Shown here one piece after another: positions 7,796 to 19,691 of a stretch of 20,000 nucleotides of DNA (positions within the stretch are counted from its first letter, which is position 1; each line of letters starts with the position of its first letter). The position numbers were made by a program, and so were the translations under genes. The notes under the pieces were generated by a model, which was not told the origin of the DNA, searched no databases, and saw only the letters and a program-made list of their open reading frames with translations. This DNA comes from an uncultured virus (IMG/VR IMGVR_UViG_3300036045_000006) (taxonomy: Duplodnaviria > Heunggongvirae > Uroviricota > Caudoviricetes): IMG/VR virus record IMGVR_UViG_3300036045_000006; one strand, given 5' to 3'.

Positions 7796-8659
7796 TTAAC
7801 TCCATGCGTCATAAAAACCGACGCGGATTGCAGCGGGTGCGGCCAGCGTGCCATTCAGCTGAAGGGTGTTTGCGCCCGGCTCCAGGCGCAGGTATCCGGT
7901 TCCAGCAATGACATCGGTCAGGTGGTAGGCGCTAACCAGTCCAGTACTGGTGAACTGAGTGATACTCAGATCCCAGCCGTTGATGATCAATTTATCCCCG
8001 GCCGCCAGGCTGCTGCGCCAGAAGAAGCCATCGACCTCACGTCCGTTTTCTATGCGCGCGATCCGAATGTTGCTGGACGTACCGGTCGCCGTCAGTGTCA
8101 GATGAATCGGCGTATCGGTATCGCCGTTGTTGGTCAGCGTCCAGGTATCGCCGTCGCCTCCCGTGGTGCTGAGTTGCGGTGCGGCCCAGTTGTTTTCACC
8201 CCACAGCGTGCCGTCGCCCCACTCCCACCCTGATCGGCTGTACCAGCGGGGATCCTCCGCGCTGAAATTGATGCGCACCGGCTGGATCAGATCGGTGTGT
8301 TTGTGCAACTGCTCGTTCATGCCGATATTGGCGACCTTGCACACGCAGAAGCGCGCCGGACGGGTGGCGTGCGCGGGCTTCATCCAGAGCGTGCCGCGTC
8401 CCCAACGTTCCATACGTTTCACATCGCGGCGGAGATCGTCCATGCCGTCGCGTAAATACGCCCGCAGATTAAAGTCCAGCGAGATCGATCCGATTTCTTT
8501 GCGATAAGGCCGATCCTGTTCCTGATCCACGCCGCCATCCATGCCAACGGCGCGCTGCATCCGCTGAAGCACCTGCGTGAAATTGGTCGTCAGCGCTTCC
8601 TGATAGATCGGAAACGTGTACTGGTTGCCCTTTGCGCGGAAATACAGAATCTGCGTCAT
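7796..8659 (-). CDS. Distal tail protein (Dit)
   Basis: ATGA overlap with the TMP stop; F.AEDPRWY, LTNNGDTDTPI and LRLEPGANTL motifs are characteristic of siphovirus Dit. Confidence 0.8.
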   Translation of the reverse strand: MTQILYFRAKGNQYTFPIYQEALTTNFTQVLQRMQRAVGMDGGVDQEQDRPYRKEIGSISLDFNLRAYLRDGMDDLRRDVKRMERWGRGTLWMKPAHATRPARFCVCKVANIGMNEQLHKHTDLIQPVRINFSAEDPRWYSRSGWEWGDGTLWGENNWAAPQLSTTGGDGDTWTLTNNGDTDTPIHLTLTATGTSSNIRIARIENGREVDGFFWRSSLAAGDKLIINGWDLSITQFTSTGLVSAYHLTDVIAGTGYLRLEPGANTLQLNGTLAAPAAIRVGFYDAWS

Positions 8660-11600
8660 CCCTGCGCTCTCCTTAACTGCTCGATTTGATCCCACGCGCC
8701 GCGTCCGGCCGCCTGACCTTCCTCATAGGAGTTGGCGTAGACGTTCATCGAACCCACCAACGGCGACTGCTGCTGGCTGCCCGCTGCAATGGCGCTCAAC
8801 ACCCGGTCAAAGTTGGGAATAAACTGACCGTTTGTCGAGGGAACAAAGAGTTCGGGCTGTGCCCCAGCCCCAATCATATACGCCTGACCGGCCCATCCCG
8901 GACCGCCGCTGTCTCTGAAGATGCCAGAGATACCGCGCCCGACATCACGCAGGAAACCGCCCGTGTTGTCTATGCCGCGCAGCACGCCCGTTCCGCTCCG
9001 GAACGGACTGGCCGCTTCAACCGCATTGATCGCGCCGCCGACGGTGCTGCTAATTCCATTCACGACATCACCCACTGTGCCTGCCACCCGCTGCACCACC
9101 TCGACGATCGACTCGATCAGGTCGATCACGGGCTGAATAATATTGGTACTGACAAAATTGAAAACCGCCGACAGCGAATCCCGGAACAGATTAATGCCGA
9201 CAGACACCGCTGACCAGATACCAGCGAGGATGTCGATCAGTCCTTGGATTGCCGGTGTGATGACCCCGGTGATCACGCCTTCGATGATCGGCCAGCCGGT
9301 GGTGGTGAACCAATCGATCAGACCCTGGATGACCGGGCTGACCAGGTTCCAGATGTCCTGCAGGATTCCGATGAAGGTCTGAATAATGGGAATAGCGACG
9401 TTGTTAATAAAGTCCAGCGCCAGCGGCAGTCCGGTCGTAATAAACCAGTCGACCAGGAAGGTGATGATCGGACCGACCACCTCCCAGATGCCGCGCAGGA
9501 CGTTGATGAACTGGCCGATCGCGGGAATGACCGTGCCGGAAATAAAGTTGAGGATCGCCGGCAGCGCGTCCTGGAGGAACCAGGTAGCCAGTGCTGCTAA
9601 CGCGGGGGCGACGACCGCCCACAGTCCGGCCAGCGTGTTGATGACCGTCTGAATAAGGGGCAGCAGTTGATCCCGGATCACCGCCACGATCGCGGGCACG
9701 GCTTCGGTCAGGAACCAGTTGGCGATCTGCACCAGCGCGGGAGCGACCACCGCCCAGGCATTCGCCAGGAACTGGAAGAAGGATTGAATCGCGGGGATGA
9801 CTGTCCCGGTGATGAACGCGGCGATCGCGGGCAGCGCATCGACCACGAACCAGGTATACATCGCTTCCAGCCCAGGCCGGATCACCGTCTCCCAGGCCGT
9901 CCCCAGCCACTCGAAGAAACTGCGGATAGCAGGCAGCGCCACGTCGATTACAAAATTTACAATCGCGGGCAGACCTTCAGACACAAACCAGCTGACCAGT
10001 GCCTGAAAGCCAGGGATCACGATTTGTGTGATGAACGTCGCCAATGTCTCAAAGACGCCGCGCACAGTGTTGACCACCCGTTGCGTCGCCTGATATAAGC
10101 TCTGCACGACTGCGATCGCCCGATCGCGTGCCATGCCGAAGCTGACCAGCACGCCCTCCAGCGTGCTTTGCATGGTCTCGTCCATTGTGCCTTCGCCAAA
10201 AATTCCTAAGATGGCTTCATGCAATCCGAAATCTCTGAGGTAGGCGAAAAACGTGTCAATCGCAAATACAAGCCGCTCGAATCCCCTGGATAACGTGTCA
10301 ATCACCGGCTGCACCAGGTCTCTGATGCCGCCCAGGTTAGATTGAAATGCAGCGTACAATCCTGCTATCGCGCCGACGATCAGCCCGATCGGACTGAACA
10401 GCAAACCAAAAGCCGCGCCCAGCCCGCCTATGGCTGTGCCCACCGCCGTAACGAACCCGCCGATACCGATCAGGATCGGACCCAGCACGCCCAGCGCCGC
10501 GACGACCACGCCGATCGTGCGCGCCAGGCCGGGGTTCTCCTGCACCCATCCCGTGATGGCGCGGATGACTGGACGCACCGCGCCAACAATATCGTTCAGC
10601 ACGGGCAGCATGGCCTGACCAATCTCAATCGCCAGTCCGCTGATGCTGGACTTCAGCAGGTCAAACTGCGCGGCGGCGCTCTCCATCTGAATTTCGCGGG
10701 CCGCCGTCGTCGCGCCGTCGATGCCATCAACGTAAGTTTCAGAAAATTCTGTGAAATTCTCCGAGGCCAGCGCTGTGACGCCGCGCAGGGCTTCCACCGA
10801 GCCGACCATCGGCGCGATCGCGTCCTGACCGAATTCACCGGCCAGCGCCTGGTACGCGCCGACCAGCCCCAGCTGCTCGACTGCCGCGCGTCCACTGGCG
10901 AAGCCCAGGCGCTGCAACCCGGCCCGCATTCGCTCGTTGGGGTTCAGCAGCGCGGACATCATCGCGCCTAACTGCGTGGTGGCCTGAGATGCGGTATTGC
11001 CCTGCGTGGTGAGGTAGGCCGCCGATGCGCCCAAATCCTCAAGCCTGATCCCCATGGAATTGGCCAGCCCGGTAACCTGCGGCAGCGCGGAGGCGAACTG
11101 ATCCATCGTGCCGACACCCATCCCAACCGTTCGGGTCAGCACGTCGGAAGCAAACGCTGCCTGATCCGCGCTGTACCCGTAACTGTTCATGATGGAGATC
11201 ATGGCGTTGGTGGCGCCGCCGAGGTTGGCGTTACCCGCTTCGGCCAGCGCGATCGCGTTGGTCAGGATGTCCATGTGGGTGGAAGCATCCGCGACGCCGC
11301 CGACCACATCGTACATCGCGTCCGCGACCGACTGAGGCCCGAAACGACTTTCCTCGCCCATCCGTTGCAGTTCGTTGGACATGGCCTGCATTTCGGACAG
11401 CGGACGGCCCATCACCGCGGCAATGTTGGCGATCGATTCCTCGAAGTTCACCGCGCTTCGAGTGGCTACGCCCAGACCCGCCGCGAACGGCGTAAACGTC
11501 TGGGTCAGCTGCGATCCCAACCCACTTAACTGCTGACCGACACCGCGCAGACCGTCGCCAATCCCGGACAGGCCAGCGGAAAACGCGCGCCGGGCTTCGT

Positions 11601-11682
11601 CCATCCCCGCGCGTACACCGCTGGCATCAATGACCACACGCCCGTAGGCGGTTCCGAGATTCGCGCCGCTGTCCATCGACAT
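8656..11682 (-). CDS. Phage tail tape measure protein (TP901-like core)
   Basis: 1008 aa, Ala/Gly-rich. N-terminal LGTAYGRVVID, TP901-type core (FEESIANIAAV...A.DVL...G), W/F amphipathic repeats, C-terminal GGP...YMIG..PELFVP..G..IPN. Confidence 0.92.
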   Translation of the reverse strand: MSMDSGANLGTAYGRVVIDASGVRAGMDEARRAFSAGLSGIGDGLRGVGQQLSGLGSQLTQTFTPFAAGLGVATRSAVNFEESIANIAAVMGRPLSEMQAMSNELQRMGEESRFGPQSVADAMYDVVGGVADASTHMDILTNAIALAEAGNANLGGATNAMISIMNSYGYSADQAAFASDVLTRTVGMGVGTMDQFASALPQVTGLANSMGIRLEDLGASAAYLTTQGNTASQATTQLGAMMSALLNPNERMRAGLQRLGFASGRAAVEQLGLVGAYQALAGEFGQDAIAPMVGSVEALRGVTALASENFTEFSETYVDGIDGATTAAREIQMESAAAQFDLLKSSISGLAIEIGQAMLPVLNDIVGAVRPVIRAITGWVQENPGLARTIGVVVAALGVLGPILIGIGGFVTAVGTAIGGLGAAFGLLFSPIGLIVGAIAGLYAAFQSNLGGIRDLVQPVIDTLSRGFERLVFAIDTFFAYLRDFGLHEAILGIFGEGTMDETMQSTLEGVLVSFGMARDRAIAVVQSLYQATQRVVNTVRGVFETLATFITQIVIPGFQALVSWFVSEGLPAIVNFVIDVALPAIRSFFEWLGTAWETVIRPGLEAMYTWFVVDALPAIAAFITGTVIPAIQSFFQFLANAWAVVAPALVQIANWFLTEAVPAIVAVIRDQLLPLIQTVINTLAGLWAVVAPALAALATWFLQDALPAILNFISGTVIPAIGQFINVLRGIWEVVGPIITFLVDWFITTGLPLALDFINNVAIPIIQTFIGILQDIWNLVSPVIQGLIDWFTTTGWPIIEGVITGVITPAIQGLIDILAGIWSAVSVGINLFRDSLSAVFNFVSTNIIQPVIDLIESIVEVVQRVAGTVGDVVNGISSTVGGAINAVEAASPFRSGTGVLRGIDNTGGFLRDVGRGISGIFRDSGGPGWAGQAYMIGAGAQPELFVPSTNGQFIPNFDRVLSAIAAGSQQQSPLVGSMNVYANSYEEGQAAGRGAWDQIEQLRRAQG
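9180..9990 (-). repeat. Six ~45-aa amphipathic repeats in the tape measure protein
   Basis: Units WF....LP.I..FI.....P.I......L...W..V.P beginning WFVSE, WFVVD, WFLTE, WFLQD, WFITT, WFTTT. Confidence 0.8.
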
Positions 11683-11700
11683 CGGCCAGTATCCTTAAAT

Positions 11701-11734
11701 AAAAAAGCGCCAAGAGTTGACACACTCTTGGCGC
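11701..11734 (-). terminator. Leader intrinsic terminator upstream of the tape measure gene
   Basis: Minus strand GCGCCAAGAGT-gtgtca-ACTCTTGGCGC-TTTTTT (11-bp stem plus U-tract). Confidence 0.8.
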
Positions 11735-11750
11735 GCTTCAGGTTATCTCA

Positions 11751-11769
11751 ATTATAGCACAGTCGTTCT
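11751..11769 (-). promoter_or_regulatory. Extended -10 promoter overlapped by LexA-like box (one mismatch)
   Basis: Minus strand AGAACGACTGTGCTATAAT: TGcTATAAT plus AGAAC-GACT-GTGCT. Confidence 0.65.
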
Positions 11770-11802
11770 ATGCACAAACGGCGAAGCGATCCGCTTACGC
11801 CG

Positions 11803-12099
11803 TCACATGACAAGTGTGCTTCTGCCCTGCGCCAGCGCCAGCGCGGTCAGCGAGATCACCCCGCTGCGCGCGCCGATCTGCGCCCGCCCTTCCAGGATGT
11901 CTTCCAGGGTAAACATCGGTTTGCCCTGCTTGTCGCGTTCGTCGAGTTTGTGCTCGACGTAACGGCCATAGACACCCACGGCCCGGTCGACCATAAAGGC
12001 CAGCCAGGGATCCTCAATCGCCAGCAGCAGGCTCGGCCTCGATCCGTAGTCCTTCGCTGTGAGGTGCAGCGTCCACACGGCCAGCTTGTTCTGCAGGAA
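11803..12099 (-). CDS. Tail assembly chaperone extension (gpT-like), probably expressed by +1 frameshift
   Basis: Overlaps the chaperone 3' end in the +1 frame and has no good own RBS/start. AKDYGSRPSLLLAIEDPWLAFMVDRAV is a typical pre-TMP motif. Confidence 0.7.
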   Translation of the reverse strand, partial: FLQNKLAVWTLHLTAKDYGSRPSLLLAIEDPWLAFMVDRAVGVYGRYVEHKLDERDKQGKPMFTLEDILEGRAQIGARSGVISLTALALAQGRSTLVM

Positions 12100-12517
12100 A
12101 CGCCTCCGCCGCGTCCCTCCCGCGCGGCATCGACCAGTTCATCACCCACATTTTGTCCGTCGAGTCGAGGTCGCTGTAGGCGATTTCGCCCGCCTCGTAG
12201 TCCGGCTCGCGGCTGGCTGGCGCGATGCGCGGTTCCACAAATGCCAGGCGCACCAGCTTTTCCATGAACGTGCCCAGCCCGGCCAGGCGTTTACGATCCT
12301 CGCTGTCGTTGCCGGTGAACATCTCCACGTCGCGATGCTCGCCGGTGATCTCGCGGGCGACCATACCGGTCAGCCAGTCGGGGACATCGCCGTTATCGGA
12401 GGACATCACCAGACCGACGATGTCGGGCTTCTTCAGCCGCGCGACCTTCCCCGACGGCAGCACTTCCTCAAAGGTGACGGGCTTCCAGAGCGCAGCAGGC
12501 GTTACGGCGCGGTTCAT
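12014..12517 (-). CDS. Tail assembly chaperone (gpG-like)
   Basis: Lies between tail tube and TMP; LPSGKVARLKKPD...FVEPRI...DLD..DK motifs; probable start ATG 12517. Confidence 0.8.
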   Translation of the reverse strand: MNRAVTPAALWKPVTFEEVLPSGKVARLKKPDIVGLVMSSDNGDVPDWLTGMVAREITGEHRDVEMFTGNDSEDRKRLAGLGTFMEKLVRLAFVEPRIAPASREPDYEAGEIAYSDLDSTDKMWVMNWSMPRGRDAAEAFPAEQAGRVDAAPHSEGLRIEAEPAAGD

Positions 12518-12519
12518 GG

Positions 12520-13116
12520 TCAATCCCACAGGTCTTCCAGATACGACTGGAATGCCAGCTGCGTAGCGGGCAACGCGGCGGCCGTTTCATTGGTGCGCAG
12601 CAGGTACAGTTCGCGTTTGATCACGGATGGCGAGAAGAAGCTGAACGCTGCCTCGCCGCGGCGGAACCGGTTCTGTTCCACATCAAAGGCCGGGTAGGTT
12701 TCCAGCAGGCACTTGGGGAAAGCGACGACACAGTTCGCGCCGTTGAGCGCCGCGTACTCGACAATCATGCCGAAGTAGGGTAGACCCTGGCCGCCGGTTT
12801 TCGGCTTGGCGATCGTATAACGATTTGGCGTCGTACCATATGTCTGTGCGGTGATGCCCAGCATCGGGACACTGGACCCAGTCAGGTCGAGCGACCCCAG
12901 CATCAGCGTGCCTGTGCCCTTCTTGATGATGCTGATCGCCTCTACCGTCTGGCCGCCGCTGTTGAGTTCGTCGTTATCGGCCTCAAATTCAAACGAGACG
13001 CGGTCGATGTAGTCGACAAAAACGGGCGTGCCGTAAACGATGTCGGGGTCGGTCGCGGTGATGGCCGCGACGACCGCCGCTTTGGGGTTGTAAATCACGT
13101 CGCCATATTTCGGCAT
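12520..13116 (-). CDS. Major tail (tube) protein
   Basis: 198 aa, positioned after the tail terminator and before the chaperones; acidic and beta-rich. Confidence 0.75.
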   Translation of the reverse strand: MPKYGDVIYNPKAAVVAAITATDPDIVYGTPVFVDYIDRVSFEFEADNDELNSGGQTVEAISIIKKGTGTLMLGSLDLTGSSVPMLGITAQTYGTTPNRYTIAKPKTGGQGLPYFGMIVEYAALNGANCVVAFPKCLLETYPAFDVEQNRFRRGEAAFSFFSPSVIKRELYLLRTNETAAALPATQLAFQSYLEDLWD

Positions 13117-13119
13117 GGA

Positions 13120-13560
13120 TTATGTCCTCACGTGTACTACTTGAATGCGGACCATCTGAGTCGGTCGCCCGACTTCCCTGGCGGTAAAGCGGCGGGTTCC
13201 GCCGACTTCGATTGTGTGCGCCAGGGCCACGTCGTCGGTATGCCAGTACTGGTTATCGAGCGCTTTGCCAATCGCTGACGCGCCGGCCTGAAGTGCGCTG
13301 ATACCCGTCTCGGCATATACGTAAATCTCGATAAAGCCCTGAAACGCCTGCACGCTCTGGGGCGCCAGACGCGCATACTCGCCGAAATTCATCACCGCAT
13401 AAGGCAGCAGCGTCACCCCGTCTGATGCACGTGGCGCAGCGGTCGCGCCGCCGCCGTCGTAAGGGAGTGTATCGTGATCCTTCACACCGCCAGGCAGCGC
13501 AGCGATCACCCCTGCATTGGTATTGAGCGCGTTCAACAGGGACTCGCGAAACGTCGCCAT
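13120..13560 (-). CDS. Tail terminator-like protein
   Basis: 146 aa; LPYAVM and IEIYVYA pattern; synteny. Confidence 0.65.
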   Translation of the reverse strand: MATFRESLLNALNTNAGVIAALPGGVKDHDTLPYDGGGATAAPRASDGVTLLPYAVMNFGEYARLAPQSVQAFQGFIEIYVYAETGISALQAGASAIGKALDNQYWHTDDVALAHTIEVGGTRRFTAREVGRPTQMVRIQVVHVRT

Positions 13561-13910
13561 CAGACAAAAATCCCGGCCAGCATCTGCGCGATCGCAGTCA
13601 GATGCGCTTGAATGGTCGGCCAGACCACAGCGTAGCGGCCTTCGTTGGCAACTTCGAGATAAATCCCGTAATCAACGCCGTGCGCCAGGTAAAGCGCCAC
13701 CACGTCCTGGCCCAGCCGCTGCGTAAAGGCATACAGCGACTGACGCGCGTTGCCGGTACGGTCGGTCCAGGGCGCGTTGGCTTTGGCGTAAGCCTCAAAC
13801 ACCCCGGCGAAATAGGTGGCGACCGCGTCGATCGCGTCGTACACCCGGCCTTCATAGGTGTGCATGGCGGTGATCATCGCGCTATCGCCACGCCATTCGA
13901 TGTGACTCAT
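13560..13910 (-). CDS. HK97 gp10-like tail completion / neck protein
   Basis: AKANAPWTDRTGNARQSL...HGVDYGIYLE...GRYAVVWPT signature. Confidence 0.85.
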   Translation of the reverse strand: MSHIEWRGDSAMITAMHTYEGRVYDAIDAVATYFAGVFEAYAKANAPWTDRTGNARQSLYAFTQRLGQDVVALYLAHGVDYGIYLEVANEGRYAVVWPTIQAHLTAIAQMLAGIFV

Positions 13911-14278
13911 GACAGCGCCTCACAGCGCGCCTGCACTTCGCCGGGCTGGGTGACGATGGCGATCACACGGTACTGGATGCCGTTGTGAGCGAAGCGATCG
14001 TTAGCCCGGATGTCGGTATCCTCCACGTCGGGATGACCCCGCACGCCAAAGATCACCGCTTCCTGCCGACCGGACTGCACCGTACTCTCGCCCTCGACCT
14101 GGCGGTGTGTGTTGCTGATCTCGATTCGCACGGTTTGCGAATTCAGCGCGACGCCGCTGCGCACGAGAACGATGTCCGCCGGGACATCCTGAATGCAGCG
14201 CCAGGCGTCACCGGCCTGAGACGCGATCGCTACCGCGCCGGTGTAGCTGGAGTCGATATAAGCGTCCAGGTCAGGCAT
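13907..14278 (-). CDS. Head closure (stopper) protein
   Basis: 123 aa; DTDIRANDRF.HNG.QYRVIAI motif; synteny. Confidence 0.7.
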   Translation of the reverse strand: MPDLDAYIDSSYTGAVAIASQAGDAWRCIQDVPADIVLVRSGVALNSQTVRIEISNTHRQVEGESTVQSGRQEAVIFGVRGHPDVEDTDIRANDRFAHNGIQYRVIAIVTQPGEVQARCEALS

Positions 14279-14651
14279 CCGGGAATTCCTTTTCCGGGCG
14301 GGGGCTGCCGCCCTTCAGGGTGAACCAGCGCGCACCAGATTCCCCCATCCCCTCGTCTTCCAGGATTTTGTTGAGCCGGGCCTGACGATGGCCGATCAGC
14401 TTGCCGAAGTGCGCGAATATCTGGCTGGCTTTACGCTGCGAATCGTTCTGCGTGTAATCCACGCGGGCTACCGCCTGCGCCTGGAACTGCTCCAGCGCCA
14501 GAATGCGCACGTATTCCTCTTGTGCCTTTGCGCTGGCCGGGTAGTCGGCGGCGGCGCGGACATAGAAATCGTCAATCTCCGCCGCCGATAACGACTCCGG
14601 CGAAGCCCCGACATCGGCCCGGACACGGTTACGCTGTAGCTCGGTGGGCAT
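14271..14651 (-). CDS. Head-tail adaptor (gp6/gp15-like)
   Basis: Probable start ATG 14651 (MPTELQRNRVRADVG...LSAAEIDDF); helical; synteny. Confidence 0.65.
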   Translation of the reverse strand: MPTELQRNRVRADVGASPESLSAAEIDDFYVRAAADYPASAKAQEEYVRILALEQFQAQAVARVDYTQNDSQRKASQIFAHFGKLIGHRQARLNKILEDEGMGESGARWFTLKGGSPRPEKEFPDA

Positions 14652-15636
14652 GTCGGTCGCACGCCTCCTGATAAATACCGTACACCTGCCGTGCGAAGCG
14701 GTCCCAGGTGTACCGGCTGCGCACATACCGGCTGGCGATGCGTGCCATGAACTGTGCGTGTTCCTGACGTTCGACCATCCGGGTCATCAGTTCAGCGAGG
14801 TGATCCTGATCGGGAATCGCCCACTGGCCCATGCCGCGCCATTCCGGATCGCTCGTCCAGGCATCGCCCAGCGTATACCGGAGCGGCCAGCCCCACAGCA
14901 TCAGGTCGTCCGCCGTGCCGCCAAAGTCGGTGGCGATCACGGGTCCGCCAGTCGCGGCGAATTCGCGCGGCGGAAAGCCGAAGCCTTCGGCGCTGGTGGG
15001 GAATACCATGCAGTCGGCGCGCGTGTATAACGCCGCCATCTGCGCCTCGCTGTAGGTGGCGCGGATGATCTCGATGTTGGCGTTGCGCACGTTGACCGGG
15101 AAATGCTGTGCTTTCACGATCAGCCTTACGTCATCCCGATCGCCGAAAGCCTGCACGAACGCCCACATCGCGACATGCCAGTTTTTGCGTTCGGCCCGAT
15201 CGCCGATGGCCAGGAACGTGTACGGCTTGCGATGCAGCGGTCGCTCCACATACTGGAACGTCTCGCTGATGCCGAGCGGCACGCAGTACACCGGCACCGT
15301 CACACCCGCCGCGCGAAACACCTCGACATTCCAGCGGCAGGGGACGATCACCGCGTCCATCTGATTGAGCGTCTCCACCCACCCGGGCGGCAGCACCGTC
15401 CCCTCAAACATCGTGATCGCCACACGCGGGCCGGTGCTGGCAACAAGCGGGCCGAAATGCTCGAAGTGCGAGGGGTAGCCCAGCAGAACCCCACCGGTAC
15501 AGGGCACGAGATGCGCGCCCTCCTGACCGATGCGATTCACATGCAGCCCCATCTGTTCGAGACGGCCCGCCAGTTCCAAAGCGAGGCGGCCGTAGGAGAT
15601 TTCGATCTCCCAGTTGAACGCCGCGACGTTGATCAC
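14629..15636 (-). CDS. Glycosyltransferase, GT-B fold (GT4-like)
   Basis: SYG N-terminus, TMFE, D.VIVPC.WN, VPLGI, RKN, ADCMVFPTSAEGFGFPPREFAATGGPVIATDFGG (E-x7-E), YTW. Confidence 0.9.
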   Translation of the reverse strand: MINVAAFNWEIEISYGRLALELAGRLEQMGLHVNRIGQEGAHLVPCTGGVLLGYPSHFEHFGPLVASTGPRVAITMFEGTVLPPGWVETLNQMDAVIVPCRWNVEVFRAAGVTVPVYCVPLGISETFQYVERPLHRKPYTFLAIGDRAERKNWHVAMWAFVQAFGDRDDVRLIVKAQHFPVNVRNANIEIIRATYSEAQMAALYTRADCMVFPTSAEGFGFPPREFAATGGPVIATDFGGTADDLMLWGWPLRYTLGDAWTSDPEWRGMGQWAIPDQDHLAELMTRMVERQEHAQFMARIASRYVRSRYTWDRFARQVYGIYQEACDRHAHRATA

Positions 15637-15639
15637 GGA

Positions 15640-16692
15640 TTAGCTGTTGGCGGTCGCCGTCGCCAGGGTCGGCCAGGTAATCTCTTCGGTGGTCGCCGCG
15701 ATGTTGGCGTACACGCCAAAGTAGGTGTCCCAGATCACCTTGTCGATCACAAACCGGCTCATGTCGCCATCGCCGCGCTGCTCTCGCAAAGGCAGCTTCA
15801 CCCAACTCTGGAAGTCCGACATGCGCATCGACATATCGATCAGATACGCCTTGCCTGCGGTCACGCCAGGATAGTTGCGCACCAGCTTGCCGCGCTGGCT
15901 GGCCCACCCGTTATAAACGATGACCCGATCGATCATGCTGAGCACATCACCCTGAAGCGTGATGCCCTGCTGCGCCACCGCTGTCAACGCGCGATGCACA
16001 TTGAAGACATCACTTTGCGAAATCAGCAGCGTGTACGGCCCACGGCGCGGATTGGTCGTATCTTCGGTCGCGTTCACCACCGCTTTTTCCAGCAGACGCA
16101 GGTAGCGTGCCGGCAGCTCTTCCTTGGAGCTGTACACCACATCGGTCGCCGCCGTTTGGTTAGCGGACGTGTAGGTGTAATTGAGGAACGGCGCGAAGTG
16201 GTAATGGTTCAGCATCGCGCTGTATGCGATACCGGCCCACCGTTCAATGAGAGGCAGATTGACATACTCGTTGAACAGAAACAGGTCTTCGGTGTACTCG
16301 ATGCCCAACCCGAGGTGCATCAGAGAAACCGATTTACTGCCGCTGTTGAGCGTGCCCATCTTGACCTCGCCGCCTTCCTGAATCTGTTCAAAGATCAGGC
16401 CGCCTTCACGCATCTGGTAAATCGTAACGTTCCGAGGCAGTCCGGCATCCTGAACGGTCTGGTAGAGGCTGTCGTACAGAATAGGTTCTTCCTGCCTGCC
16501 TGCCTCAACCTCATATCGCTGACGGTTAAACCACTCATCCGGAAACGTGCCGGTGGAAAGAAATTCCGCCATCATGTTTTCGCCGGAGCGGTAAACACGG
16601 AAATGATCGAGCAGGTTGAAGCCCTCGCGGAATTTCACCTGCGGTTTTGATGCTTGCTTTTCAAGCAGAATGGACTTACTGATCCACTGCAT
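15640..16692 (-). CDS. Major capsid protein
   Basis: 350 aa following protease/scaffold and decoration genes; EGGEVKMG and GIEYTEDL HK97-fold-like motifs. Confidence 0.75.
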   Translation of the reverse strand: MQWISKSILLEKQASKPQVKFREGFNLLDHFRVYRSGENMMAEFLSTGTFPDEWFNRQRYEVEAGRQEEPILYDSLYQTVQDAGLPRNVTIYQMREGGLIFEQIQEGGEVKMGTLNSGSKSVSLMHLGLGIEYTEDLFLFNEYVNLPLIERWAGIAYSAMLNHYHFAPFLNYTYTSANQTAATDVVYSSKEELPARYLRLLEKAVVNATEDTTNPRRGPYTLLISQSDVFNVHRALTAVAQQGITLQGDVLSMIDRVIVYNGWASQRGKLVRNYPGVTAGKAYLIDMSMRMSDFQSWVKLPLREQRGDGDMSRFVIDKVIWDTYFGVYANIAATTEEITWPTLATATANS

Positions 16693-16696
16693 GGCT

Positions 16697-17077
16697 TTAG
16701 ATGCCCTCCGGGTTCAGGATGCCCGTGACGACGTTATTGCTATCTTTCGGGCCGGTCGAGATGAACAGGCAGTGTTTGCCCGCGCCGCCAGTCGTCGAAT
16801 AGGCCGCGTCCGGAATGATGTTGGCGGTGATATCAGCCAGCGTCACGTAAACCCTGACGCCAGCGCTGGCGATCGTTAGCCCGGCGGGAACCGTGAACTG
16901 ATATTCAAAGCGGTCGATGGTAATCGCGCGGAAGTCGCCCGACTTGCCGCTGGCCATGGTCACGCCGAAAAACGACCGCGCGTGAATCACAGTCGGCGCA
17001 TCGACATCCTCCACCAACTGAAGGGTGACGGCCTTGCCGTCCGATTCCTTGAACGTGTTACCTACGTTGACAGGCAT
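16697..17077 (-). CDS. Head decoration / cement protein (DUF2190-like)
   Basis: 126 aa between scaffold and capsid; SDGKAV...FFGV...G pattern. Confidence 0.6.
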   Translation of the reverse strand: MPVNVGNTFKESDGKAVTLQLVEDVDAPTVIHARSFFGVTMASGKSGDFRAITIDRFEYQFTVPAGLTIASAGVRVYVTLADITANIIPDAAYSTTGGAGKHCLFISTGPKDSNNVVTGILNPEGI

Positions 17078-17562
17078 TACTTCTTCTCCTCACTGGGGAA
17101 GATGAACGGCGAGTCGGCTTCCACTTTCGTCGGAGCCACGACGACCGGGCGAGTGCGGGCGGGTCCCATCTCGGAGGCAATTGCCGCTGCGAGTAGTGCC
17201 TTGATTTCCGGACGGTCCAGCACGCCTTCAACGGCGCGGGTGGCTTCGGCGCGGGTGGCCGGTTTTTCCGCCGCCACCAGCATCGCGATCACCGGACGCT
17301 GAGACTCCAGCTTCACGGCATCGGCGATCTGGTTCCTGATAAATCCGTCGAGCAGTTCGCGGTTTTCCTTGCGGAGATCGGCGTTCTGTTCGTGCTGTGA
17401 CCGGACGGCCTTGTACGCGCCATCGGTCTCGACGTTAAGCAGGGTGGCAATCTTCTGGAGGTCTTCCAGCAGCGGCCTCTGCTCCTTCAACTGACGTTCC
17501 AGGGATTCGACCAGCGTGGAGAGCCGGTCGCGCTCAGCCTGGACTTCCTGAATTTCCGGCAT
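17077..17562 (-). CDS. Nested in-frame scaffold protein (161 aa)
   Basis: Internal AAGGAGG (17574-17568) 5 nt before in-frame ATG 17562 (MPEIQEVQAERDRL), at the start of the coiled-coil. Confidence 0.7.
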   Translation of the reverse strand: MPEIQEVQAERDRLSTLVESLERQLKEQRPLLEDLQKIATLLNVETDGAYKAVRSQHEQNADLRKENRELLDGFIRNQIADAVKLESQRPVIAMLVAAEKPATRAEATRAVEGVLDRPEIKALLAAAIASEMGPARTRPVVVAPTKVEADSPFIFPSEEKK

Positions 17563-18708
17563 AACGTCCTCCTTCGCCGGCACCAACTGAGTATTGGGGG
17601 ATGTTGACGTATTCAAGGTTTCCGCTGTGGGCACTGGCACAGAGGCCATGTCGGGCAGACCCAGCTGTTCGGCGTTGGCCAGATCGATCGTCCACAGGGT
17701 GTAGTCGATGATCTCGTTGCCTTCGTAAACCGGGTTTATCCCAAAAATCGAGGTACCCACCTTCGCGTTGGCTGCGTTGGCGGCTTCGAGGTGGATGCGC
17801 GCTTCGCGGGTGTAGGTGAAGCATTTGCCCCACGCCATCTGGGACGCTTCATCCCAGACCGCCGCCACCCAGCGGATCGCGGGGAGTTCATATTTACTCC
17901 CCATTTCGTAATCGGCCAGGTGACCCCAGCGGCCCTCTGGCCGGCGCTTGTTGACCTGGTTGACCAGGCTCATGACCGCTTCCTGGCTGTACTTGTGACC
18001 GTTGCGGCTGATGGTCGCTTTGCCGATCGGGCGCGTATCGAAGATCAGGTTTTCGCCGATCGCGCTGCGCAGCGCCTCCAGATTGAAGTCTTCAGGCAGC
18101 GGGATGTCCGGGACGGCATAGCCGCTGACCGCTTCAGCCAGCGTGTACATCAGCTTCGCGGGTGACTTGCCCGCGGCGATCGCTTCCTGTACCGGCACGC
18201 TTTCCAGCAGCGGCCAGGTCTGCACCGCGTCAAATGACCCCTCCGCGGTGAGCGTCACGGCCTTGGCCTCGACGCCAATGGGCGACATGACCTCAAACAG
18301 GTCCTGCCGACCGGGCGCATAGGCCAGGGTGATGTGCGGGCGGTAGGCCATCGGGTAGCTGCTCGCTCCAATGGTAAGGCCGCGCGCCACGGCTTCGTAG
18401 TACAGGCTGTACTGGAGATAAATCAGCGGCGGCACATACTGCATGAGCAGCACGACCGCGCTTTCATCATCGTGGTAGAAACTCGTGATGTACTGGCCAG
18501 ACGCGCCGAACAGCGCCACCCGATCGTTCGGCACGCGCATATCGGTCAGGTCCTGACCCTTGTCGTCTTCCAGGTACAGCAGGGTGATGTGAAACTCAGC
18601 AGGATCAACAAATCTCGTGCCTTCAGGCATGATCCGTCTGAGGAAATTCTGTGCCTCCACCAGCGCCGGGTGGTTTGGCAGCGGGATCGAGAAATATGCT
18701 TTCGGCAC
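17077..18708 (-). CDS. Fusion: 2H phosphoesterase + prohead protease + scaffold
   Basis: GCAGGAG RBS with GTG start. Two HxT motifs (FHITLLY, PHITLAY) in the first ~165 aa. The middle has SRNGHKYS, WGH, VGTSIFG and IDLA protease-type motifs. The C-terminus is coiled-coil. Confidence 0.8.
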   Translation of the reverse strand: MPKAYFSIPLPNHPALVEAQNFLRRIMPEGTRFVDPAEFHITLLYLEDDKGQDLTDMRVPNDRVALFGASGQYITSFYHDDESAVVLLMQYVPPLIYLQYSLYYEAVARGLTIGASSYPMAYRPHITLAYAPGRQDLFEVMSPIGVEAKAVTLTAEGSFDAVQTWPLLESVPVQEAIAAGKSPAKLMYTLAEAVSGYAVPDIPLPEDFNLEALRSAIGENLIFDTRPIGKATISRNGHKYSQEAVMSLVNQVNKRRPEGRWGHLADYEMGSKYELPAIRWVAAVWDEASQMAWGKCFTYTREARIHLEAANAANAKVGTSIFGINPVYEGNEIIDYTLWTIDLANAEQLGLPDMASVPVPTAETLNTSTSPNTQLVPAKEDVMPEIQEVQAERDRLSTLVESLERQLKEQRPLLEDLQKIATLLNVETDGAYKAVRSQHEQNADLRKENRELLDGFIRNQIADAVKLESQRPVIAMLVAAEKPATRAEATRAVEGVLDRPEIKALLAAAIASEMGPARTRPVVVAPTKVEADSPFIFPSEEKK

Positions 18709-18727
18709 GCTCCTGCCTCATCGAAAC

Positions 18728-18763
18728 AAAAAAAGCGCCCAGAGTTAGGCACTCTGGGCGCTC
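18728..18763 (-). terminator. Leader intrinsic terminator with tandem GAGNNCC motifs, upstream of the protease gene
   Basis: Minus strand G-AGCGCCCAGAGT-gccta-ACTCTGGGCGCT-TTTTTT (12-bp stem plus U-tract). Confidence 0.8.
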
Positions 18764-18779
18764 ATGTATTCAGCCATGC

Positions 18780-18809
18780 ATTGTAAGGCACGAACTTATG
18801 TTCTGTCAA
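18780..18809 (-). promoter_or_regulatory. Sigma70-type promoter with LexA-type box in the spacer
   Basis: Minus strand TTGACA-gaacataagttcgtgcct(18 nt)-TACAAT; box AGAAC-ATAA-GTTCG at 18804-18791. Confidence 0.8.
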
Positions 18810-18810
18810 T

Positions 18811-19017
18811 TCAGGGCCGATTTTCCCTTAATACTCCGGGATTATCCGGCCAGGTAAACAGCCTGCGGCAGTGCCGGTTCGGGCACTTGATTTCAAGTAC
18901 GCTGCCCGCGGCGGCTTTGCAGGCCATCTTGTGGCAGTACGGACAGCGCACCTCGATCAGTTCAGCCGTCGGCGGCTGGCGATCCTTGATCTTTTGCAGC
19001 GTCTCTTTCCAGGTCAT
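18811..19017 (-). CDS. Mu Com-like zinc-finger regulator (68 aa)
   Basis: EVRCPYCHKMACK...LEIKCPNRHCRRL matches the Com pattern (RCxxCxK...EIKCPxxC); ATGA overlap with the GT2 stop. Confidence 0.8.
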   Translation of the reverse strand: MTWKETLQKIKDRQPPTAELIEVRCPYCHKMACKAAAGSVLEIKCPNRHCRRLFTWPDNPGVLRENRP

Positions 19018-19691
19018 GACGCCCTCCACTTCTCAATAAATTTTGCGCGACTGGCATTGGCGATGTCGTGATTGACCGGGTGGGACGGGTGCACCAGGCC
19101 GATGTCGCCCGCCGCACGCAGACGGAAACCTGCCGCGCGGGCCTGATAACAAAAGTCCACGTCCTCCCAGTAGTTGGGATTGAACCGTTCGTCGAAGCGC
19201 AGGCCGGTGTTGAAGACGCGCCCGGCCACCGCCATCCAGCCGCCCGACACATAATCCGGTGTCTGCGCGCCCTGGATCGGCAGCGTATGGTAATCCCCGG
19301 TCACGTAACGGCCTTCAACACCGCAGATGTCTGTCAGCCCGCGCGCGATCGGCCCGGCCAGGCTGAACAGCCACGAGTGGCGAGCGACCCACAGGTCGTC
19401 ATCCAGGAAGACGATGATATGGTCGTCCTCCAACCCGCTGGCTTTGATCCTGTCGATCAGAAAGTTGCGTCCGCCGGCGCAGCCCAGATTTTTTTTGCTG
19501 TGATACCACTGGCAGCGCTGCATATAGCGGCCTTTATACGCCAGCTTATACTCCTGCTGAAGGACATGAATACTGGCCTTCGTCGTATTGCAGGCCGGTT
19601 CAATGGTGGACAGACAGCGCATGATCTCTATCGGACGGTTCATGGTGACAATCGCCACATGAATCACCGTTGGTTTAAGAAGTTCGTTCAA
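19014..19691 (-). CDS. Glycosyltransferase family 2 (GT-A fold)
   Basis: IVTMNR, NLGCAGGRN, VFLDDD (DxD), DYVSGGWM, FDERF...WEDVDFCYQARAAG. Confidence 0.9.
   Translation of the reverse strand: MNELLKPTVIHVAIVTMNRPIEIMRCLSTIEPACNTTKASIHVLQQEYKLAYKGRYMQRCQWYHSKKNLGCAGGRNFLIDRIKASGLEDDHIIVFLDDDLWVARHSWLFSLAGPIARGLTDICGVEGRYVTGDYHTLPIQGAQTPDYVSGGWMAVAGRVFNTGLRFDERFNPNYWEDVDFCYQARAAGFRLRAAGDIGLVHPSHPVNHDIANASRAKFIEKWRAS

Follow-up and report, generated by a model that had tools for sequence, protein, structure and literature searches.

Two short cassettes in the genome of an uncultured tailed virus (IMG/VR record IMGVR_UViG_3300036045_000006, Caudoviricetes), one ahead of its scaffold and capsid genes and the other ahead of its tape-measure gene, each join a predicted promoter to a predicted intrinsic terminator whose 5' arm overlaps a recognition site of the kind bound by Com, the small zinc-finger protein of phage Mu. 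A Com-like gene lies directly upstream of the first cassette. We analysed a stretch of 20,000 nucleotides (nt), here called the window, and sequence comparison leads us to regard Com-dependent antitermination at both cassettes as probable. The initial annotation of this DNA had pictured a Com-based attenuation switch for virion genes rather than translational control of mom; the comparative evidence lends that picture support, and each element of it accessible to computation held up. The window belongs to a metagenome contig of 67,463 bp to which no cultured phage is closely related (by megablast, 11000-19500 had no match in phages, nor did cassette 1 in a distant-mode blastn), and the DNA examined from that contig, the window plus the locus L082, comes to 21,760 of its 67,463 bases. 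The minus strand carries all the long window genes, and also the elements on which the argument turns:

18811..19017, minus strand: Com-like zinc-ribbon gene, 68 amino acids (aa), CPYC...CPNRHC, matching Pfam PF10122 Zn_ribbon_Com
18780..18809, minus strand: predicted promoter P1, TTGACA-18 nt-TACAAT, with 11/12 matches the best promoter-like site in the window
18748..18763, minus strand: bipartite Com-type site 1, GAGCGCC-CA-GAGTGCC, the sole exact match in the window to the bipartite motif GAGNNCCNNGAGNNCC
18724..18763, minus strand: predicted intrinsic terminator T1, a 13-pair stem (G-U counted) at 18763-18733, then T7-G-T3
11751..11778, minus strand: predicted promoter P2, with a perfect extended -10 (TGcTATAAT, 11759-11751) and a weak -35
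11720..11736, minus strand: degenerate Com-type site 2, GCGCGCC-AA-GAGTGTG, with the core CC-AA-GAG retained
11701..11734, minus strand: predicted intrinsic terminator T2, an 11-pair stem at 11734-11707, then T6

As had been described, the two hairpins are near-identical and have the layout of promoter, hairpin and gene in common, with the promoters 14-18 nt ahead of the hairpins. Ranked among 22 terminator-like matches in the window, these hairpins take the top two places, and on sequence and predicted fold both have the form of an intrinsic terminator, a GC-rich stem-loop directly before a U-tract. Both contain GCGCCnAGAGTG...AACTCTnGGCGC-T6, and the pattern GCGCCNAGAGT..ACTCTNGGCGC that they have in common occurs twice in the window and in 0 of 200 shuffles. 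The lone difference between the stems, a C-G pair in one and an A-T pair in the other as read from the sequence, is compensatory, which agrees with the initial annotation; beyond the hairpins, the two cassette regions are only loosely similar. At cassette 1, T1 has a predicted energy of -25.9 kcal/mol (z = -7.6, 0/200 shuffles as good), and its 5' arm is site 1, whose GAG lies 16 nt from the end of the P1 -10. The ribosome-binding site (RBS) of the scaffold gene, GAGGCAGGAG, and its GTG start fall outside the hairpin, and the P1 spacer holds a motif, AGAACATA, that recurs in other cassettes. At cassette 2, the extended -10 of P2 ends 14-16 nt ahead of site 2 and its hairpin, T2 is predicted at -21.8 kcal/mol (z = -5.5, 0/200 shuffles as stable), and AAGGA and then the ATG of the tape-measure gene follow on its 3' side.

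The exact hairpin pattern had 0 matches in IMG/VR. A relaxed form was found in at least 69 loci of genome_contigs and at least 102 of metagenome_contigs, in unrelated taxa, a number that by our own arithmetic is about the chance expectation; among the loci listed, only the window's own contig has the pattern twice. Automated matching also proposed a third cassette in the window (7887-7800, minus strand, inside the 3' end of the Dit gene), which we rejected as a false positive and treat as a chance match because it has neither a flanking motif nor a proper terminator. Rfam gave nothing at the gathering score for the window and six further loci, and at E below 1 only weak look-alikes among small RNAs (sRNAs) bearing terminators.

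The Com-like gene stands directly 5' of hairpin 1, where the initial annotation had placed a Com-like zinc finger, and its product matches PF10122 above the cut-off, which it passes marginally (23.3 bits against 22.9, E 4.5e-5). It aligns with Mu Com and with other Com-like proteins and has both cysteine knuckles of the zinc ribbon, the second being CX4C where Mu Com has CX2C. The Com-like gene shares a transcription unit with the glycosyltransferase gene on its 5' side, and its ATG and the stop codon of that gene overlap as ATGA. In the AlphaFold model the protein has four strands, and block-mean pLDDT (predicted local distance difference test) is 91-95 across residues 21-50. A Foldseek search of this model against the PDB found nothing at E <= 0.001 (best E 0.54), its weak rows including the zinc-binding domains of RBR/IBR modules, Rpo12 and Rpb9; searched by sequence, the PDB held no Com, the top match being ribosomal eS27 (E 0.0026). 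An index of 5.8 billion proteins returned the protein only as itself, a singleton, and a search of IMG/VR with it returned no relative.

In the accessible text of PMC6483171, SELEX with a Com zinc finger yields a core GAG(N)2CC and a bipartite form NGAGNNCC(N)2-3GAGNNCCNN, and its authors propose that CC(N)2-3GAG is recognised in a hairpin loop, the hairpin being small and closed by a C-G pair and the GA being crucial. The consensus given for Com in the initial annotation is thus a published one, and the 5' arm of hairpin 1 matches its bipartite form exactly. With up to one mismatch, 1.6 such matches are expected by chance, so by itself the bipartite match carries little weight. Each hairpin contains the core CGCCNNGAGYG, and these two are its only occurrences in the window, against a shuffle mean of 1.03. 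Site 1 can fold as a small hairpin, GCGC-CCAGA-GUGC, predicted at -3.6 kcal/mol; that of site 2 includes two G-U pairs and is predicted at -2.0 kcal/mol. A cognate site of the Com kind, GAG(N)2CC with CC(N)2-3GAG in a small hairpin, thus lies beside the Com-like gene.

Pairing across many sites points to this small hairpin as well. We aligned 22 distinct sites, including Mu's own (GAATGCCTGCGAGCATCC, at 876-893 of the locus L246), on a 4-bp stem with a 5-6-nt loop of the form C-N-N-(N)-G-A, and pairing holds in 87 of the 88 cells; at the outer position, 12 sites have G:C, 8 have A:U, 1 has G:U and 1 is unpaired or other. The observed percentage paired and the covariation score were each reached in 0/500 shuffles, and when the 3' partners are shifted along, no more than 65% of cells pair. 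The regular expression with which sites were picked fixed much of the inner two pairs, and the outer two are the free test. Predicted energies range from -2.0 to -5.8 kcal/mol across sites. The 5' arm of the terminator overlaps the small hairpin or its GAG words in all cassettes examined, so that the two folds are mutually exclusive. As in Mu, the unit recognised is more likely the small hairpin, with its 4-bp stem and C-N-N-G-A loop, than the 5' arm in single-stranded form.

Among 58 IMG/VR loci fetched by capsid-protein alignment, tblastn with the window's Com-like protein finds a match in one, L177. Its Com protein is 46 aa long, scores 30.4 bits against the Pfam family and is 50% identical to Mu Com, and its gene is directly 5' of TTCACA-17-TATAGT, which is followed by a U-tract hairpin and then by the scaffold gene. 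A second, near-identical cassette lies about 7 kb downstream, before a 966-aa open reading frame (ORF) in the tape-measure position. The initial annotation had staked its switch on a link between the hairpins and com-containing relatives, and this sole Com-bearing relative has twin cassettes at both junctions. The window and L177 have the words GAGCG, CGCCCAGAG and C(T)CTTTTTGTTT in common, their proteins being just 32-45% identical; the P2 block GCATAGAAnnnCTGTGCTAnAAT is also present in L177's second cassette, and an IMG/VR scan for that block reached L177's contig only. In the other three distinct relatives that lack a Com match and whose scaffold match starts near residue 1, the scaffold gene abuts its neighbour with no cassette. 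Five further loci (L226, L213, L180, L229, L230) have plain terminators at equivalent junctions, without promoter or site. In L226, three unrelated plain terminators (7825-7852, 11002-11022 and 14882-14916) occupy the junctions of the GT2-type glycosyltransferase with the scaffold gene, of the major capsid protein with the GT4 glycosyltransferase, and of the tail chaperone with the tape-measure gene; in this phage group, transcripts seem to be attenuated preferentially at these three junctions.

The association extends beyond the capsid relatives, and it was recovered from both sides: scans with DNA motifs lead to Com-like genes, and a scan with proteins leads to the RNA motif. Together they added dozens of cassettes in IMG/VR, usually immediately 3' of a Com-like gene or of a cysteine-less relative. 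The first DNA pattern, built from four cassettes with no use of protein information (CGCCMRGAGYG, 9-16 nt, CGCTYTTTT), found 14 IMG/VR stretches, of which 10 are cassettes and the other 4 look like chance matches. Two of the ten are in L177's contig and the rest in L232, L234, L235, L238, L239, L240, L241 and L244; they have GAGCGCC-NN-GAGCGCC at or before the terminator 5' arm, twice in L235. In L234 and L240 an ORF for a Com-like zinc ribbon ends 38-58 nt 5' of the cassette, and in L235, L232, L238 and L241 a small upstream ORF aligns with Com with all four cysteines absent. The second DNA pattern (GAGCGCCNNGAGYGCC, 6-32 nt, T6) found 51 stretches, against roughly 10 by our own rough chance estimate. 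When 4216 ORFs from all six frames were scanned with small Com or cysteine-less profiles built from our alignments, matches at E<0.05 came from 16 of the 51 loci, all of them on the strand of the motif and ending 31-565 nt upstream of it, and none elsewhere; for two of the 16 (L240, L287) a match was built in, their own proteins having gone into the profile. Two further Com-like neighbours, in L308 and L310, were recognised by eye.

The cysteine-less proteins form a family with 25 further members in the protein index (alignment A6). They are 55-90 aa long and share the block TGKLLFRFDPERGLIExQxRGxKxxIDL; three members lie at these positions:

L235, 4081-4311, minus strand: cysteine-less family member
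L232, 4617-4826, minus strand: cysteine-less family member
L241, 2008-2199, plus strand: cysteine-less family member

At the thresholds used, neither Pfam nor PHROG gives a match to the family, and its profile found nothing meaningful in the PDB and no tblastn match in cultured phages. Compared with Com by hhalign, it scores a probability of 41% (E 2.8e-4), and the predicted four-strand topology is similar in cysteine-less and Com-like models. For the protein-first scan, a cassette was taken to be a site G[CT]C-N2-3-GAG[CT] together with a hairpin of -9 kcal/mol or below that ends within 3 nt of a T-run. Searching IMG/VR with A6 gave 22 loci, 16 of which have such a cassette downstream on the gene's strand, and matches fell 28 to 1 on the gene's strand over the opposite one. 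Ten of the 16 previously unknown loci are among those with a cassette; by eye, 4 of the others show variant cassettes and 2 show none.

Promoters and virion genes accompany these cassettes. A promoter score of at least 10 within 100 nt upstream was reached by 13 of 32 cassettes and by 3 of 903 control windows from the same loci. The first downstream ORF, compared with PHROGs at 16 cassettes, is a terminase large subunit in three, a head maturation protease in three, a scaffold in one and a tail protein in one, the remaining eight being one member of a family of unknown function and seven without a match. Other gated genes are a portal (L240), an S78 protease followed by a capsid gene (L232, L238), a protease/scaffold (L235) and a gene of more than 1226 aa (L241). 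It is a fair possibility, which we put forward tentatively, that Com-family mini-proteins, including the cysteine-less branch with its conserved block GKLLFRFDPERGLIE, are hairpin-trapping antiterminators that constitute a widespread and portable late switch of tailed phages, with cassettes before terminase, portal, protease/scaffold and tape-measure genes and in the role played by lambdoid Q.

Several observations on these cassettes stand by themselves. AGAACAT(A) is common to the promoter spacers of the window (18803-18796, minus strand), L177 (about 1573-1580), L252, L257 and L265, and many leaders have CUGAAUA a few bases ahead of the first site, of which CTGAATAC, read in leader 1 at 18773-18766, is the window form. 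These shared spacer and leader motifs could be a site for a further regulator, a third half-site, or a mark of common descent of mobile cassettes. In L277, L280, L298 and similar AT-rich loci, a Shine-Dalgarno (SD) sequence, AAGGAGG, lies in the 3' arm of the terminator and an ATG comes straight after the T-run; one hairpin could there block both transcription and translation. Moraxella phage Mcat6 (L272) has an unannotated Com-like ORF (2503-2660) between its terminase gene and a 277-aa gene, with the site GAGCGTC-AA-GAACGCC inside the ORF's own 3' end and no T-run, a Mu-like layout within the head module of a cultured phage.

We propose that the virus carries two copies of a portable late-gene switch, each made up of a sigma-70-type promoter, a leader with a Com site, a terminator and the RBS of a virion gene. 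The host-type promoter would fire, and with the protein absent, RNA polymerase would stop at the U-tract and leave an RNA of about 45 nt. The Com-like protein, once translated from the upstream unit of portal, minor-head and glycosyltransferase genes, would bind and so trap the nascent small hairpin, in the way that Mu Com binds mom mRNA; with the 5' arm so held, the terminator could not close, and read-through would extend from cassette 1 into the scaffold-capsid-tail block and from cassette 2 into the block of tape-measure and tail-tip genes. Given a separate cassette for every operon segment, we would expect the action to be local, probably, and not processive. One might speculate that the weaker site 2 passes less read-through into the tape-measure block. 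From the sequences we infer promoter activity, start points, termination at the U-tracts, Com binding and read-through alike.

A number of points weigh against this proposal. The window protein clears the Pfam cut-off by just 0.4 bits and has CX4C, not CX2C, as its second knuckle; site 2 is degenerate, without the 5' GAG and the 3' CC; and the way in which sites were picked partly preset the two inner pairs of the small hairpin. The terminators (-25.9 and -21.8 kcal/mol) are far stabler than the small hairpins (-3.6 and -2.0 kcal/mol), so the protein would need to act kinetically and co-transcriptionally on nascent RNA. In L177 the site is at the top of the terminator, and a 6-bp lower stem could survive binding. 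About 13 of the roughly 33 distinct groups from the second scan look like chance on inspection, and six clear groups of cassettes lack a Com-like gene in the 1-2.5 kb examined, three of them sitting directly ahead of a terminase gene. The homology of the cysteine-less family to Com, judged from profile comparison and predicted topology, is suggestive only, and the AT-rich relatives with an SD in the 3' arm may mean that the family acts on translation too, or instead.

That last point leads to an alternative in which the Com-like protein would work mainly after transcription, as in Mu, by opening a structure that limits translation or stability, with the U-tract hairpins as ordinary, leaky terminators by which expression is trimmed from one operon segment to the next. 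No Com activity other than translation control is documented in the accessible texts of PMC6483171 and PMC3299994, and the AT-rich cassettes, with AAGGAGG in the 3' arm and an ATG after the T-run, would suit it, as would the Mu-like layout of Mcat6, its site in the ORF 3' end without a T-run, and the plain terminators of L226 and L213 at equivalent junctions, without promoter or site. We nevertheless think it unlikely: the RBSs and starts in the window are 14-25 nt past the hairpins and unsequestered, the site overlaps the terminator 5' arm in every cassette examined, and a promoter directly before a strong terminator is sensible only if termination is regulated. Dispensing with the protein altogether, one could see in the hairpins plain intra-operon terminators, duplicated, that set stoichiometry (less tape-measure than tail-tube protein, for example), the Com fit and the Com-like neighbour being coincidental in this phage. 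Com-less relatives do have terminators at the capsid-GT4, chaperone-tape-measure and GT2-scaffold junctions, and chance predicts about one CGCCNNGAGYG per window (1.03) and 1.6 bipartite motifs with up to one mismatch; against this stand the recurrence of the site-terminator design beside Com-like genes in many unrelated phages, the covariation of the small hairpin and the strong promoters immediately 5', which make such a coincidence very improbable.

We place slightly lower in our ranking, and likewise regard as very improbable, an antiterminator, Q-like or of another polymerase-modifying kind, whose gene would lie outside the window, with AGAACATA as its DNA loading site and the Com-like protein otherwise employed. 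A constitutive-looking promoter, a short leader and a terminator reproduce the layout of lambda PR'-tR', the conserved motif in the promoter spacer of several cassettes is positioned like the Q-binding element of lambda, and 45.7 kb of the 67,463-base contig extend beyond the 21,760 bases of the window and L082. Such an antiterminator would leave the Com-type RNA site and its covariation unexplained, however; no Q-family Pfam match occurs among 22 window and three upstream proteins, and the hairpin begins about 10 nt past the likely start (about +1 in L177), too close for a sigma-dependent pause at +16 to +25 to fit in. Least probable of all, to the point that we give it little credence, is that the cassettes are genes for sRNAs of about 45 nt, with a 5' seed, a hairpin and a U-tail, that act in trans or soak up the Com-like protein. 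Promoter and terminator alone do define a short transcript, the common leader motif CUGAAUA could be a seed, and the weak sub-threshold Rfam matches are sRNAs with terminators; yet the cassettes always lie directly before co-directional virion genes with an RBS within 10-25 nt, and no Rfam family is reached at the gathering score. A palindromic DNA operator was also considered and set aside, the U-tract, strand bias and covariation favouring RNA, as was a 5' stabiliser hairpin, the U-tract speaking for termination. Antitermination by the Com-like protein remains the account we prefer.

The genes around the cassettes fit a virion module. The 5' part of the order of transcription, to which L082 adds 1.7 kb past the window end, runs from a probable portal through a minor head gene like Mu F and SPP1 gp7, the GT2/TAGT-like glycosyltransferase and the Com-like gene to cassette 1. 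Behind it follow the 543-aa scaffold-like gene, a 126-aa gene, the major capsid gene, the GT4 glycosyltransferase and head-tail connectors, and after these a probable tail tube, the tail chaperone pair, cassette 2 and the tape-measure, Dit and tail-tip genes. The principal genes are:

19014..19691, minus strand: GT2/TAGT-like glycosyltransferase (Pfam PF20691 30.4 bits, PF00535 26.9 bits; phrog_2456)
17077..18708, minus strand: scaffold-like protein, 543 aa, with an N-terminal 2H-phosphoesterase-like domain (phrog_3219)
15640..16692, minus strand: major capsid protein, in the operon behind T1 (phrog_3116, E 1.5e-50; tblastn to the annotated phiCD508 major capsid protein)
8656..11682, minus strand: tape-measure protein, 1008 aa, first gene behind T2 (Pfam PhageMin_Tail 2.1e-22; phrog_991 and others)

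Nothing in the protein index exceeds 52% identity to the capsid protein. By tblastn the scaffold-like protein matches genes 5' of capsid genes in Bacillus phages, and its search of IMG/VR gave one weak locus only. Its N-terminal part of about 180 residues (window 18100-18708, minus strand) has two HxTL motifs (FHITLLY, RPHITLAY) and weak Pfam matches to the 2H phosphoesterases Acb1 (anti-CBASS) and LigT, and both HxTL motifs are also present in the L177 homologue; a 2H enzyme joined to a head scaffold protein is unusual. Among the 58 relatives found by capsid protein, 54 keep the GT4 gene beside the capsid gene (14629-15636, minus strand) and 9 keep the GT2/TAGT-like gene, and the presence of two glycosyltransferases inside the virion module suggests virion or DNA-base glycosylation as a trait of the phage group. 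A terminator-like hairpin at window 2169-2148 (minus strand; nine pairs, then TTTGATT), just past the 162-aa ORF at 2188-2676, may mark where the late operon ends.

For decades Com has had only one known role, that of switching on translation of mom and related methyltransferase genes. If our proposal is correct, many uncultured phages would use a small RNA-binding protein and an RNA hairpin of 17 nt to set when their particles are made, and late-gene control would gain a new and compact class beside Q, N, Ogr/Delta and late sigma factors. A site and terminator beside a mini-gene would then serve as a sequence rule for annotating late operons in metagenomes, the cysteine-less relatives would represent a zinc ribbon that kept its job after losing its zinc ligands, and the whole would be a very small protein-RNA switch, easily tested and possibly reusable. 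In cultured phages (Mu, JD024, Chuche), Com-like genes precede mom or methyltransferase genes, as the accessible text of PMC3299994 also reports. Termination goes unmentioned in the accessible text of PMC6483171 (0 occurrences of 'terminat'), and a literature search on Com with antitermination or virion genes, and on the heptamer, whose coverage left out most subscription journals, found nothing relevant.

With Mu Com-mom, the system has in common a small zinc-ribbon protein of the same Pfam family, PF10122, a site GAGNNCC(N)2-3GAGNNCC folded as a small hairpin with a C...GA loop and a closing C-G pair, and the position of that site against a larger inhibitory hairpin that binding would disrupt. 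It differs from Mu in that this inhibitory hairpin is a predicted terminator with a U-tract, where Mu's covers the start codon, and in that the targets are virion genes (scaffold/capsid, tape measure) instead of a DNA-modification gene with its start or SD buried in a stem, the RBSs and starts here lying outside the hairpins. There are, moreover, two sites 7 kb apart, each with its own promoter, and com is upstream of a separate promoter, whereas Mu's com overlaps its target gene. The order of a strong host-type promoter, an immediate terminator and then virion genes, with a candidate antiterminator just upstream, resembles lambda Q and PR'-tR', as does the release from termination that we propose to be the regulated step. 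Unlike Q, a DNA-loaded modifier of polymerase, the candidate is a mini-protein that would bind RNA and whose site is in RNA, and the separate cassette for each operon segment suggests local rather than processive action; Pfam finds no Q-family protein in the DNA examined. In its RNA logic, the arrangement resembles that of BglG, SacY and LicT, where a protein-stabilised small hairpin overlaps the terminator 5' arm and the two folds exclude each other. The fold of the protein is unrelated to that of BglG and LicT (Pfam finds none of their CAT-PRD domains among the window proteins), there is no input from sugar or the phosphotransferase system (PTS), the genes concerned are phage late genes, and the hairpin is much smaller, with 4 bp and a 5-6-nt loop. 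Taken together, these comparisons suggest that the Com family and protein-operated terminator switches are the known parts of the system, and that a Com-type site within terminators before virion genes is the new one.

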